Sequence record: PQ436005.1
Origin: Escherichia phage vB_Eco_K-02
DNA: 44,896 nucleotides
Strand: one strand, 5' to 3'
Below are positions 11,465-20,160 of the stretch, in pieces. A program made the translations under genes and the position numbers. How positions within the stretch are numbered: the first letter of the stretch is position 1; the number at the start of each line of letters is the position of its first letter. The notes beneath the pieces were generated by a model. It was not told the origin of the DNA and did not search any database. It was given only the letters and a program-made list of their open reading frames with translations.

Positions 11465-11808
11465 CCGATAAATGGTGGCTTAATCTGCGTAGTGGCGACA
11501 AGGTTTACACAGTCGGCGACCGCAGAAAGAGCAGCGGCGTAGCTACTGTGTTACAAAACGGCAAAAAGTACATTCACATTGTGCATGAAGCTCGTGCGCT
11601 CCGCGTGAATAAATCGTCTGGCAGGCTTGAGGATTACCCGAAAACATTAATATATAAAAGTGAAAAGCATCACATGGACGCTGTTGACGCAAGACGTCAG
11701 TTCGCAGGAATGTTGCAACAGTTAAGCGACTTACATCGCGATGATTCTTTCATTCCTACAGAAGAACAGTTACAGGCATTAAACTTGTATTTGGAGAGTT
11801 TACGATGA
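11461..11808 (+). CDS. hypothetical protein
   Basis: ORF; ATG at 11461 overlaps upstream stop. Confidence 0.5.
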   Translation: MTDKWWLNLRSGDKVYTVGDRRKSSGVATVLQNGKKYIHIVHEARALRVNKSSGRLEDYPKTLIYKSEKHHMDAVDARRQFAGMLQQLSDLHRDDSFIPTEEQLQALNLYLESLR

Positions 11809-13046
11809 TTCTTAAAGAACGCGGCGGCAATAACGATGTACATGCCTTACTGTCGCCGTCAGGGGCTAAAAAGTGGCTAAGTTGCGCGGCATCACTGGCC
11901 TGTGAAAAAGATATCCCTAACACGTCAGGTAAAGCCGCTGTATTAGGCACGGCAATGCACACCATAGCTGAGGTCCATCTCAACGCTTATATTCGCGGAA
12001 CTGCGCTGCCGTTAGAGCGTGAAGTCGGTGCTTACGTGCTGGATGAAGGCAAAGGCCAGATTAAGGCACTAATCAGCCCGATGAAAGGCGCGGTACTGAT
12101 TACGGCGGACATGATTGAGCAGGTGCGCAAGTACACCGACTACTGCAAAGCGATTATCGACGTAGCGACTTACGCCAAGCTGGAAATGCGAGTCAATCTT
12201 ACTGAGGTATTGCATCCTGGGTATGAAGGTGTCGAGACGTTCGGAACCGCTGACCTTGTTGCCGTTCAGGAGCTGGCGAACACCGACGATCACATGCTCA
12301 TTATCGGCGACCTGAAAACTGGACGGCATCGTGTCGAAGCGAAAGAAAACAAGCAGCTTATGCTTTACGCTCTCGGTGTTTATCGTCGACTCAAGAGACG
12401 TTATAACATCACAGTTGTCCGTCTGATCATCTTCCAGCCGTACGCTGGCGGTGCGTCGGAGTGGGACATCTCGGTTGAAGGTCTGGAACTGTTCGCTAAG
12501 TTCGCGCAGAAACGTGCACTGTTAGCATTAGATGCGTATTTCCGTGGTAAAAAGAACCTGAAAGCGTCGGACTTCAAGCCGTCTGTCGACGGCTGTCAGT
12601 GGTGTCGGTTCTCAGAACAGTGCGCAGCGCGTACAAAGACGGTTAACGCGGCGCTGGCGGAAGAACTGGAGGACGATTTCGCACTGGAACTTACACCGGA
12701 GCAACTCGTGGCTGAGTATGAGAAGTTGCCGTTGTTGCGCCAGCACATCGACAAGGTCGAGAAAGCTATGGCCGCCGCGTTGCATTCTGGCAAGAAAGTA
12801 CCGGGGTACAAGCTGGTTGAGGGTCGGCCGGGTAATCGCGCGTGGAAAGACGCAGAGAAAGTGGCCGAGAAATACGGCGGCAAGCTGACCAAAGAAGTGC
12901 TCATGACGCCGACCGAAGCGGTTAAAGTAATACCGGAAGAAGAACTGAAAGACTTCATTACCCGTAAACCAGGCGCGCCATGCGTCGCAACGGCGGACGA
13001 CAAACGTCCTGAGTGGAATCAGGTAACAGAGGAGGATTTGGAATGA
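11805..13046 (+). CDS. PD-(D/E)XK exonuclease, Cas4/RecB-like with Cys cluster
   Basis: Nuclease motifs ...TADLVAV...IGDLKTGRH...QLMLYALG; N-terminal Cys and C-terminal C-x2-C-x5-C (CQWCRFSEQC) as in Cas4-type FeS nucleases. Confidence 0.6.
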   Translation: MILKERGGNNDVHALLSPSGAKKWLSCAASLACEKDIPNTSGKAAVLGTAMHTIAEVHLNAYIRGTALPLEREVGAYVLDEGKGQIKALISPMKGAVLITADMIEQVRKYTDYCKAIIDVATYAKLEMRVNLTEVLHPGYEGVETFGTADLVAVQELANTDDHMLIIGDLKTGRHRVEAKENKQLMLYALGVYRRLKRRYNITVVRLIIFQPYAGGASEWDISVEGLELFAKFAQKRALLALDAYFRGKKNLKASDFKPSVDGCQWCRFSEQCAARTKTVNAALAEELEDDFALELTPEQLVAEYEKLPLLRQHIDKVEKAMAAALHSGKKVPGYKLVEGRPGNRAWKDAEKVAEKYGGKLTKEVLMTPTEAVKVIPEEELKDFITRKPGAPCVATADDKRPEWNQVTEEDLE

Positions 13047-13294
13047 TTCGTAAAATGTTCAGAGTAATTGGCGGTTTTGTGGCGTGTATTATTTTCTGGG
13101 TTCTTATGTCGCCGCTAATGATACCAACATTTATCATAGCGTGCCTTACGATATGCCTAATGCGAACACGCGACATCGAAGCCATCCTGAATGACAAATC
13201 GTGGAAGACACAGGCGTTACGTTTCATAAACAACATGAAATGGCCAAACAAGTATATTGAGATAGTTGAGAAAATAACTGGCTGGAAGGGTTGA
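13043..13294 (+). CDS. small membrane protein
   Basis: ATG at 13043 coupled via the repeated acagaggaggatttggaATGA; two hydrophobic helices. Confidence 0.45.
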   Translation: MIRKMFRVIGGFVACIIFWVLMSPLMIPTFIIACLTICLMRTRDIEAILNDKSWKTQALRFINNMKWPNKYIEIVEKITGWKG

Positions 13295-18231: not shown

Positions 18232-19648
18232 GTTTCAAAGGCGTGAGTACCAAAAGCTCATGACTTCGTTCATGCTGCGGCACCATCGCTGCAACATATG
18301 GGCAAGCATGGGCGCTGGGAAGACTGGCAGCGTACTGTGGGCATTAAACCGACTGTTCCGAAACGGCCAACTTAATGATGACGACCGCGTGTTAATCCTC
18401 GCCCCGCTGCGGGTTGCGTCTGGTACGTGGCCTGCAGAGCAAGAGAAATGGCAATTCCCATGTCTGCGTGTTGTAGATGCGACTGGTTCAGAGAAGCGCC
18501 GCATCGCGGCGCTGGAGTCAGATGCTAACGTGGTTTGCACGAACTATGAGGTTATCGAGTGGCTGATTGACTACTACGGCAAAGACGACTGGCCTTTTAC
18601 GGTTATCGTTGCAGATGAAAGCACGAAGCTTAAATCATTCCGCAGCCGTTCAGGTGGTAGCAAGCGTGCAAAGGCGCTTAGTAAAGTGGCTTTCGGAAGG
18701 GTTAAGCGTTTTATTAACCTGACTGGTACACCGTCACCAAACGGCCTCAAGGATTTGTGGGGCCAGAACTGGTTTATCGACGCTGGCGAGCGCCTAGGTT
18801 CGTCGTATACAGCATTCACCGACCGCTGGTTTAATTCGGTACAGAAAGGAAAATCTGCGATGGCACGTGAATATCACGCCCGCCCTGGTGCAGATAACGA
18901 GATTCACCAGAAGATGAAGGACATCAGTCTGACGATTGACGCCGCCGAGTGGTTCGGTTGTGAAGCGCCTGTTATCGTGCCGGTTGAAATCGACCTGCCG
19001 AAGAAAGCACGTCAGGCGTACATCGATATGGAGGAGAAGCTATTCGCGGAACTGGAAAGCGGAGAAGTTGAAGCGGCTAACGCTGCGGCGAAGACGTCGA
19101 AGTGTCTGCAGATTGCCTCCGGTGCCGTGTATGTTTCGGGCCCTGACGGCGAAGCAACCAAAGACTGGGAGAAAGTGCACGACACGAAACTGGACGCACT
19201 GGAGTCCATTGTGGAAGAGTTACAGGGCGCGCCGTTACTGGTGGCCTATCAGTTCAAGCACGAACTGGAGCGCATCCTTAAGCGATTCCCGCAGGCCCAG
19301 GCATTTGCCAAAGGTGCGAAGGGTAATAAGCAGATGGAAGCGTGGAACCGTGGGGAAATCGAGATTTTATGCGTGCATCCTGCGTCAGCCGGGCATGGTT
19401 TGAATTTACAGGACGGGGGTCATCATCTGGCGTTCATCTCGCAAGGCTGGAACCTTGAGCACTATTTGCAGGTTGTTGAGCGTATAGGCCCGGTCCGCCA
19501 GAAACAAGCGGGGCACGAGCGACCGGTGTTCCTCTATCACATCGTCGCTAAAGACACGCTGGACGAGGTTGTTACCACACGTACTGACGAGAAGAAATCG
19601 GTACAGGAAGAGTTGCTTAATTACATGAAGAGACGAGGTAAGGAATGA
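18224..19648 (+). CDS. SNF2/DEAD-like helicase
   Basis: Helicase motifs ILAPLRVASGTW, VIVADESTKLK, NLTGTPSPN; 474 aa. Confidence 0.65.
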   Translation: MSKFQRREYQKLMTSFMLRHHRCNIWASMGAGKTGSVLWALNRLFRNGQLNDDDRVLILAPLRVASGTWPAEQEKWQFPCLRVVDATGSEKRRIAALESDANVVCTNYEVIEWLIDYYGKDDWPFTVIVADESTKLKSFRSRSGGSKRAKALSKVAFGRVKRFINLTGTPSPNGLKDLWGQNWFIDAGERLGSSYTAFTDRWFNSVQKGKSAMAREYHARPGADNEIHQKMKDISLTIDAAEWFGCEAPVIVPVEIDLPKKARQAYIDMEEKLFAELESGEVEAANAAAKTSKCLQIASGAVYVSGPDGEATKDWEKVHDTKLDALESIVEELQGAPLLVAYQFKHELERILKRFPQAQAFAKGAKGNKQMEAWNRGEIEILCVHPASAGHGLNLQDGGHHLAFISQGWNLEHYLQVVERIGPVRQKQAGHERPVFLYHIVAKDTLDEVVTTRTDEKKSVQEELLNYMKRRGKE

Positions 19649-20160
19649 TGGATGGCGAGGAGTTACTACTTAAGGCGCATCTGCTGTCACGAGGTTTTGA
19701 CGCGGACCGTTTACGTGTAGTCTTAGGCCCTGGAGTAGCTACGTTTTACCTGTGGGGCTTTGACGGTAAGCTACGCGGGTACCAGCATTACAAGCCACAT
19801 GCTGAAAAGAACTGCAAGAACCCAAAGGATGCGCGGTATTTTACCCGAACAACAAGACCTTGCTTATGGGGGTTGGAGTACCTTCCTGAAAGTGGGACAG
19901 TATTTGTTACCGAAAGCATATTTAAAGCTGTTGCTTTGATGAATTGCGGGTTTAATGCAGTTAGCGCATTGGGGTCGAACATACCAGCTGACTTACGGCA
20001 GCAAATGTCACTTTTGCCGTATGAATGGGTGTGCGCCGGTGACAATGATAAAGCTGGTTTAAAATTTAGCAGAACATTCTCCAGAGGATTTGTATCTAAC
20101 GACCTTGATGAACTTTGTGAAGAAGAAATAACCTACCTTGCGAGGAAATTTGTTAAATGA
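19645..20160 (+). CDS. Toprim-domain protein (putative primase-associated)
   Basis: VFVTESIF...NAVSALGSN...WVCAGDNDKAG resembles the Toprim E...DxD signature. Confidence 0.4.
   Translation: MMDGEELLLKAHLLSRGFDADRLRVVLGPGVATFYLWGFDGKLRGYQHYKPHAEKNCKNPKDARYFTRTTRPCLWGLEYLPESGTVFVTESIFKAVALMNCGFNAVSALGSNIPADLRQQMSLLPYEWVCAGDNDKAGLKFSRTFSRGFVSNDLDELCEEEITYLARKFVK

Follow-up and report, generated by a model that had tools for sequence, protein, structure and literature searches.

A Rad-like Toprim protein closing the replication operon of Escherichia phage vB_Eco_K-02 as a probable counter-defence cassette

The replication genes of Escherichia phage vB_Eco_K-02 (PQ436005.1; 44,896 nucleotides, hereafter the window) end with a gene on the + strand at 19645-20160, whose 171-amino-acid (aa) product contains a Toprim domain. 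The question raised by this locus is whether such a protein belongs to the replication machinery or is carried as cargo. The original prediction, made from the sequence, favored the machinery: the protein was described as Toprim-only and, together with the primase/helicase-like product of 7587-9866, was suggested to form a split primase. The analysis described here points to a different answer. Sequence comparison places the product, with high confidence, among the homologues of Rad, an anti-retron protein of phages T5 and SP15, and the gene is probably a Rad-family counter-defence cassette with anti-retron activity in the window phage. For the split primase the result is negative.

The window protein matches Toprim_2 with 22.4 bits, the cut-off being 22.1, and phrog_849, labeled 'DNA primase' (E 1.3e-48). 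Compared with T5.076 by BLASTP, it shares 49% identity over 166 aligned residues (E 5e-39). T5.076, a protein of 172 aa, is encoded under its own promoter in the transfer RNA (tRNA) region adjoining hegA, and owes its annotation as 'DNA primase' to its Toprim match. The T5 TOPRIM 'primase' open reading frame (ORF) adjoining hegA is reported to be Rad (BF23 paper, PMC10644984); literature searches on 'T5.076' and on Kagunavirus together with Toprim found nothing specific. The SP15/T5 Rad is reported to neutralize the retrons Ec67, Ec78, Ec83, Ec48 and Se72 (Azam et al. 2023 preprint, 10.1101/2023.03.15.532788). According to the same preprint, Rad lowers the msr-msd RNA and the multicopy single-stranded DNA (msDNA), not the reverse transcriptase or effector transcripts, has 541 homologues in 19,263 phage genomes, and is weakened by the substitutions R13E, P33T, I88T, D135H and E156H. 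In a later structural paper, Rad of SP15 figures as an established anti-defence protein (PMC12673091). The five mutated positions (R13, P33, I88, D135 and E156) fit the T5.076 numbering exactly. Their counterparts in the window protein are identical in three cases (R16, D135 and E156), whereas I88 corresponds to V88 and P33 to Y35.

The two proteins are also alike in length (171 and 172 aa), in their predicted two-part architecture and in being the products of dispensable early genes in a variable region. The settings differ: the window gene ends the replication operon of a 45-kb siphophage without tRNA genes, whereas the T5 gene, with a promoter of its own, lies in a tRNA-rich anti-defence island of a 120-kb phage. 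Beyond T5.076, tblastn returned about 420 phage hits below 60% identity (T5-like phages, jumbo phages of Erwinia and Klebsiella, and others), covering 91-98% of the query; the distant hits among the matches listed are 37-54% identical.

In structural terms the protein is more than a Toprim domain. In an AlphaFold model built on a 16-sequence alignment (predicted local distance difference test, pLDDT, 93.6), 161 of the 171 residues superpose on the whole RNA-polymerase domain (RPD) of DnaG, which comprises the N-subdomain as well as Toprim, and the description as Toprim-only is thus too narrow. In structure it is a minimal DnaG-type RPD, which has lost the zinc- and helicase-binding domains and kept the acidic residues that bind metal in Toprim. 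The protein has no Cys/His cluster and no match to Zn_ribbon_DnaG; a single helix stands directly ahead of the RPD and, in the model, one helix follows the Toprim fold at the C-terminus.

An exhaustive profile search (E ≤0.001) gave 2,043 cluster representatives at 50% identity, and the best 150 of these are nearly all stand-alone proteins of 165-190 aa. Conservation was assessed on 115 family proteins with a median identity of 33% to the window protein. The residues G45, Y46, Q47, Y49, Y65, G76, E90, D133, D135, G138 and D153 are 84-100% conserved, all but one of the 115 have Arg or Lys at position 64, and the N-terminal H12-L13-x2-R16 is conserved at 82-98%; R16, D135 and D153 stand at 93-98%. 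The conserved Toprim acidic residues, together with the K/R-Y motif, make the family look like an active enzyme. The Toprim Glu, the DxD, the third acidic motif and the K/R-Y motif III are shared with the DnaG-type RPDs (DnaG of E. coli and B. subtilis, the T7 gp4 primase fragment and T5.121). Unlike the DnaG-type primases, the window protein lacks a zinc ribbon as well as a helicase or helicase-binding domain, it carries the conserved N-terminal helix (H12, L13, R16), and the second acidic residue of E-x-x-x-D is Lys in its clade. The DnaG motif II GFGGR is replaced in the family by a G-Y-Q-x-Y signature and, in contrast to DnaG, most genomes show no link to a replicative helicase.

Is the gene required by the phages that replicate with this operon? 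The window phage, a siphophage of coliform hosts, belongs to Kagunavirus (Guernseyvirinae) as a coliphage and shares about 94% identity with Golestan/BEU33. A megablast of 11805-20160 against the GenBank phages gave 499 records, and many of the Kagunavirus hits end at query position 7844, the last base of the SNF2 helicase gene that precedes the Toprim gene. In vB_Eco_K-01, whose module is otherwise 95% identical, the helicase gene leads directly to a 67-aa ORF and then to the tail spike, with no Toprim gene. Among the 487 phage records positive in tblastn only 64 are close relatives (≥80% identity), against the 499 records with the module. The slot was surveyed in the 39 loci from IMG/VR, GenBank and the window in which both flanks are present, namely the SNF2 gene and a conserved 45-aa gene, which in the window lies at 20157-20294 on the + strand (phrog_5915, E 2.6e-27) and forms the aligned right border. 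The 171-aa Toprim gene occupies the slot in 12 loci and is absent from 27, in which the slot is empty (11), reduced to an 11-nucleotide gap (1) or filled by ORFs of 59-77 aa (9), by an ORF of 161-165 aa (3) or by a 62-nucleotide insert (3). On either side, the aligned sequences cease to be similar precisely at the AAATGA stop/start overlap. The Toprim gene is dispensable, an optional cargo in an exact ORF-sized slot. A survey of Kenyan Salmonella phages independently found the TOPRIM primase in only two of its type-MT1 phages, with 46% identity to a hypothetical protein of an MT2 phage (PMC10783031).

One of the alternative occupants, the ORF of 161-165 aa (L018 15955-16434, L025 7730-8221 and L035 5988-6479), combines an H-N-H-type motif (EIDHINH...N) with an AP2-like segment at its C-terminus.

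By analogy with the T5/SP15 Rad, the Rad-like protein would most likely act early in infection on the retron non-coding RNA/msDNA. Such action would prevent the retron-mediated abortive infection, and the protein would not be a part of the replisome. Confidence in the anti-retron activity is moderate, and several points weigh against it. The activity is shown only for Rads of the T5 family and of Proteus phages, with no Guernseyvirinae homologue among those tested; the experiments are reported in a preprint, and two of the homologues tested there protected only weakly. At 49% identity the function may have drifted; P33 of the T5 Rad is Y35 in the window protein. In Kagunavirus and in a more distant 46-kb phage the gene is always the last of the replication operon, with translational coupling to the SNF2 helicase, a position that would also suit an accessory role in replication. 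Finally, the conserved catalytic residues are those of primases, including the K/R-Y motif of the N-subdomain, which is unexpected in a simple 'RNase'.

The chemistry may be a Toprim-centred cleavage or a nucleotidyl transfer, since both the nuclease action proposed in the preprint and a primase-like reaction are compatible with a Rad-type primase core. A bolder and rather doubtful extension is that Rad-type proteins, as complete zinc-finger-less DnaG cores in which the nucleotide/template-binding motif of primases is retained along with the Toprim metal site, disarm retrons and perhaps other defences guided by RNA or single-stranded DNA (ssDNA) through primase-like nucleotidyl transfer, or through tight ssDNA/RNA binding, on the msr-msd RNA/msDNA and not by simple RNase action. 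The family, far larger than reported and repeatedly placed in counter-defence islands that hold NAD-salvage and RNA-repair genes, would then be a general-purpose counter-defence module.

The locus holds a known module and an additional member of the Rad family, and what is mildly new concerns structure: Rad-type proteins would seem to be DnaG cores that are complete but zinc-finger-less, with the primase motifs conserved. A stripped-down primase core offers a testable structural frame for the attack on retron RNA/msDNA. The label 'DNA primase' or 'toprim domain protein' in the Kagunavirus and T5-like records misleads, as it implies DnaG-type priming and hides a likely counter-defence gene. The annotation also bears on the choice of therapeutic coliphages against retron-bearing E. 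coli.

What accompanies the gene in its distant relatives? The neighbourhoods were surveyed in 71 diverse IMG/VR loci, found with the 16-sequence family alignment and corresponding to 29 lineages at 85% identity. Within 6 kb of the gene, an Rnl1-type RNA ligase is present in 10 of the 29 lineages, a metallophosphoesterase-like protein (recognized by motifs, with no Pfam match) in 8, a dual-specificity (DSP) phosphatase in 6 and an AAA_33 (PNK-like) kinase in 5. The NAD-salvage genes are represented by NMNAT-Nudix in 6 lineages, usually directly adjacent, and by NAMPT in 5. The gene stands inside tRNA arrays in 5 lineages, as well as in T5, Baret, Klebsiella phage Centimanus and Salmonella phage Arash. 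No immediate partner gene recurs across the 29 lineages. These neighbours are of the kinds found in phage counter-defence islands, which fits Rad and argues against a replisome role; the counts are raw, without background frequency. In metagenomic fusions (P0080, P0108, P0128, P0156 and P0088) the Rad-like domain is joined to GNAT and Arr ADP-ribosyltransferase, to a CCA-adding enzyme with HD, to Mom or to a HAD phosphatase; such chains may truly be polyvalent counter-defence proteins, or else fusions created by gene calling. None of 10 Rad-like fusion proteins has a helicase or zinc-binding domain.

Two particular arrangements were observed in this survey. In L046 (1294-4869), L060, L066, L099 and others, which are unrelated phages, the Rad-like gene stands directly beside an NMNAT-Nudix and NAMPT pair. 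The metagenomic protein P0081, of 994 aa, contains an N-terminal cytidylyltransferase-like domain and a Rad-like domain in one chain.

The same neighbours can be read in a broader way. The protein could be an RNA-directed counter-defence or RNA-repair enzyme without specificity for retrons, which cleaves, re-synthesises or extends damaged or structured small RNAs (tRNAs, defence guide or sensor RNAs) and works alongside phage tRNAs, RNA ligase, the kinase/phosphatase end-healing enzymes and the CCA-adding enzyme. The ligase, phosphoesterase, phosphatase and kinase counts, the tRNA arrays and the one metagenomic fusion to a CCA-adding enzyme with HD are consistent with it, as is Vibrio phage F92, where the gene lies under or beside a tRNA nucleotidyltransferase annotation. 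However, the islands are generally accessory or anti-defence in nature and, with counts that have no background frequency, the adjacency may reflect only that. The window phage itself has neither tRNA genes nor RNA-repair genes near the gene, and the sole experimental data point to the retron non-coding RNA/msDNA (10.1101/2023.03.15.532788). This broader enzyme is an unlikely explanation of the window gene.

A role in priming depends on the nature of the 759-aa primase-helicase encoded at 7587-9866 (+ strand). This protein is composed of an N-terminal domain like those of the archaeo-eukaryotic primases (AEP) at residues ~90-210, a linker at ~230-330, a RepA/DnaB-like AAA_25 helicase at 340-526, which is the sole Pfam match (E 3.3e-20), and a variable C-terminal domain. 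The N-terminal 340 residues (7587-8606) occur in two allelic forms that share about 20% identity and are joined to near-identical helicase cores. Invariant between the alleles are D101-x-D103, T128-T-A-S-H132, R140, D153, D172 and Y183-x-P185, which are taken here to be the DxD / sxH / hD signature of AEP. Allele B has a zinc-type motif, C-x3-H...C-x7-C (VPCPNEH...FVCQHTNNGAC); at this place allele A, the one of the window, reads PATPEH...LLCFPRE, with most of the ligands lost. The AEP-like domain has no match to a Pfam (AEP or PriCT) or NCBIfam family and no credible match among the PDB sequences, and when the N-domain by itself served as query, a word-indexed homologue search returned no more than three hits. 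Its AlphaFold model from 20 sequences reached a pLDDT of 56, a value at which a fold search is only suggestive. The 759-aa protein probably carries its own AEP-type primase domain, although this is not proven.

The arrangement of AEP, zinc/PriCT region, RepA helicase and C-terminal domain has been catalogued for mobile elements (Kazlauskas et al. 2018, PMC5862659). The window protein resembles these fusions in its AEP-like motifs, its linker with a zinc-type motif in one allele, its RepA/AAA_25 helicase and its variable C-terminal domain. It differs from them in that it has no Pfam AEP/PriCT match, that the window allele is short of most zinc-ligand cysteines and that the fold model is of low confidence. 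The helicase-primase gene is present in every locus that covers its position.

The N-domain alleles (compare L001, L006, L014 and L032) are swapped among phages otherwise more than 90% identical. The helicase core (8607-9446) also has a second allele, about 30% identical to that of the window, for instance in Golestan; the loci concerned are L001, L006, L007, L010, L024 and L042. With both kinds of alleles, the gene is a mosaic of at least three exchangeable segments, namely the N-domain, the core and the C-terminal domain.

The gene of the 759-aa protein and the Toprim gene, which the original prediction had placed next to each other, are 9.8 kb apart. Several results argue against a split primase of the two products. 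The AEP and Toprim primases have different folds, and the 171-aa protein would therefore not be a detached piece of a 759-aa enzyme that appears to have an AEP domain of its own. The Toprim gene is absent from 27 of the 39 slot loci, including K-01, and does not co-vary with the AEP alleles: it occurs five times with allele A and six times with allele B (five once a duplicate locus is removed), and each allele also occurs in loci that lack the gene. A connection between the zinc-less AEP allele and the presence of the Toprim gene was likewise considered and discarded, as the two show no correlation. In T5, moreover, the homologue T5.076 coexists with a complete primase, T5.121, which has a CHC2 zinc ribbon (PF01807), DNAG_N and Toprim, and has the DnaB-like D6 helicase and the polymerase as its neighbours. 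The split primase was rejected on the AEP motifs, the missing co-variation and the dispensability of the gene. The original prediction had named as its refutation domain searches that assign the Toprim protein to another family, for example that of a nuclease, and in spirit this is what they returned.

A looser version would have the 171-aa RPD make RNA primers as a split or auxiliary primase, with the template recognized in trans by the 759-aa protein or by a zinc-ribbon protein such as that of 10411-10638. The full DnaG RPD fold with E90, D133-x-D135, D153 and R/K64-Y65 would suit this role, as would the gene's terminal place in the replication operon and its translational coupling to the SNF2 helicase, both also seen in a 61%-identical relative, and the loss in the window's AEP allele of the Cys residues of the C-x3-H...C-x7-C motif. 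On the other hand, 27 of the 39 related loci replicate without the gene, the AEP alleles show no correlation with it, and T5 has a complete primase as well. No helicase or zinc-ribbon neighbour recurs in the 29 lineages and none is present in the 10 fusions, and the T7 RPD alone does not bind the template (PMC2910064).

The DnaG-like primases of some jumbo phages have been described with stand-alone primase zinc ribbons (PMC7824862), which favors the auxiliary primase and is the reason why a zinc ribbon acting in trans was sought in the window. A six-frame scan for Cys/His patterns gave three small ORFs on the + strand, at 10411-10638, 14066-14344 and 16711-16809. None of them matches the primase zinc-ribbon model, and no primase-type zinc ribbon of Pfam is present in any small ORF of the module. 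The 32-aa ORF at 16711-16809 is independent of the Toprim gene, being present in 41 of the 41 related loci that gave any match, and the trans-supplied zinc ribbon was discarded as a candidate. The 75-aa protein of 10411-10638 occurs with the Toprim gene in 7 of 12 cases and without it in 3 of 29 (Fisher p = 0.003, uncorrected for relatedness). Four gene-positive genomes, however, are without the 75-aa protein, three genomes have this protein without the gene, and the Toprim-positive loci belong largely to one or two lineages. The co-occurrence is an unexplained weak association, confounded by lineage. Taken with the evidence above, an auxiliary priming function has a low probability.

The 75-aa protein, which has an acidic tail and no match in Pfam, carries a C-x2-H-x20-C-x2-C-G pattern whose spacing resembles that of the DnaG CHC2 ribbon.

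It is very improbable that the gene is a selfish or decaying cassette without phage function, a mobile ORF hitch-hiking in a recombination-prone slot: the patchy distribution, the exact borders and the alternative occupants, including the H-N-H-type ORF of 161-165 aa, would agree with this, but the catalytic and N-terminal residues are 82-100% conserved over the 115 proteins at a median identity of 33%, the 2,043 clusters are nearly all full-length (165-190 aa) and the Toprim protein has no homing-nuclease-type domain.

The region that the Rad-like gene closes is the early/replication operon of a Kagunavirus siphophage. All the genes named by the original prediction were found on the + strand at their coordinates, and its reading of the block as a replication module, with the domain assignments, is supported by Pfam, throughout by PHROGs, and by annotated relatives. 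The best megablast records have 95-97% query coverage and about 94-95% identity, and include the Escherichia phages BEU33, BEU35, VB_EcoS-Golestan, SCS44 and phiEc3 (Guernseyvirinae, Kagunavirus). In Golestan and fEg-Eco06 the genes are annotated in the window's order, from the 'replicative helicase-primase' as far as the tail-spike gene on the other strand. The replication modules of other Guernseyvirinae (Golestan, K1G/K1H-like and Jersey-like) share this order with 83-97% coverage and 87-95% nucleotide identity, and differ from the window solely in the methyltransferase allele, the presence of the Rad-like gene and the primase N-domain allele. The block is a conserved operon, already deposited and annotated, and an ordinary, well-sampled module; its conservation in 499 phage records shows that the arrangement is not due to chance.

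The core machinery consists of the product of 7587-9866, in which a probable AEP-type primase is joined to a RepA-like hexameric helicase, together with a gp2.5-like ssDNA-binding protein (SSB)/annealase, Pol A, the SNF2 helicase, a Cas4-like 5'-3' exonuclease and a junction resolvase of the VRR-NUC type. Such a gene set suggests a recombination-assisted replication with self-contained priming. The C5-methyltransferase and the last gene, 19645-20160, are optional cargo and not core.

The genes of the block, all on the + strand, are as follows in their order. The gene at 11805-13046 encodes a DUF2800 PD-(D/E)XK exonuclease (PF10926, E 5.5e-68; PDDEXK_1 PF12705, E 1.7e-9). The Cas4-type cysteine cluster attributed to it is borne out by a set of cysteines read from the sequence, with an N-terminal C27/C33 and a C-terminal C263-x2-C266-x5-C272, and D169-L-K171 is also present. 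The product of 13374-14006 is a DUF2815 / Enc34-type (gp2.5-like) ssDNA-binding and annealing protein (Enc34_ssDNA-bd PF10991, E 6.2e-11; phrog_112, E 2.4e-32), annotated as a DUF2815 family protein in close relatives such as Golestan. Its tail reads ...DDLEDDEEDEAPRRERRRRG. The family and the acidic run DDLEDDEEDEA agree with its description as an acidic-tailed ssDNA-binding protein, but the C-terminal end is basic (RRERRRRG), and the acidic run directly before a basic tail (DDLEDDEEDEA-PRRERRRRG) is unlike the purely acidic tails of gp2.5 or of the E. coli SSB.

The family A DNA polymerase with a 3'-5' exonuclease is encoded at 14329-16593 (PF00476, PF01612; phrog_17, E 6.4e-137; annotated in Golestan); the start annotated in relatives is the ATG at 14341. 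It is followed by two small ORFs, a hydrophobic peptide of 43 aa (16583-16714), which overlaps the Pol A stop codon and is a hypothetical protein in Golestan and K-01, and the 32-aa ORF at 16711-16809 (phrog_38225, E 3.4e-26). The sequence of the latter, MKIYWFYEEDRRICPRCGIAHTKREGCVDEYA, contains a CxxC-x3-H-x5-C knuckle, and its gene overlaps the start of the VRR-NUC gene. The VRR-NUC nuclease (16796-17083), of the Holliday-junction-resolvase type, is below threshold in Pfam (VRR_NUC, E 0.08), with the motif 'APDLLV...VEIKK' read in the translation. The assignment was settled by the solved structure 4QBN (E 3e-52; 88% identity over 92 residues), in addition to weaker matches to 4QBO (E 6e-9) and 4QBL ('VRR-NUC'); the PHROG families are phrog_93 and phrog_5702.

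The genes from 16796 onward had been regarded as all start/stop coupled. This holds for the remaining junctions, which overlap by 4-8 nucleotides, but not for a 30-nucleotide gap at 17084-17113, the sole intergenic gap here, ahead of which lies a promoter-like site (17052-17080; 10 of 12 matches). Downstream of the gap is a conserved 63-aa protein (17114-17305; phrog_4879, E 3.2e-46). Then follows the C5 cytosine DNA methyltransferase (17302-18231; phrog_363, E 7.8e-89), for which the PF00145 match is partial (E 5.6e-17; motifs I-VIII only). Motifs I, IV, VI, VIII and X are present in the translation as FAGIGG, PPCQPFS, GEQV, HKRDR and GNAIVP. The enzyme, which may serve in self-protection against restriction, is variable or optional: about 60% of the related loci have no match and the others are 64-100% identical. 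The SNF2-family helicase (18224-19648) has the ATPase lobe (SNF2-rel_dom PF00176, E 5.3e-13) as well as Helicase_C (PF00271, E 7.8e-4) and matches phrog_62 (E 5.4e-168).

Some minor features of the block were also observed. Residues ~185-240 of the methyltransferase, where the target-recognition domain is expected, form a low-complexity stretch rich in Arg, Asp and Glu. The gene at 11446-11808, directly upstream of the DUF2800 gene and overlapping it, is present in some relatives only; its 120-aa product has a sub-threshold match to Phage_ProQ_C_like (25.0 bits, cut-off 27; E 3.2e-5). Just upstream of Pol A, the 92-aa ORF at 14066-14344 has a CxxC...CxxH pattern (CKFCKAEG...YACEEH) and occurs in 7 of 41 related loci, with phrog_9585 as its sole family annotation.

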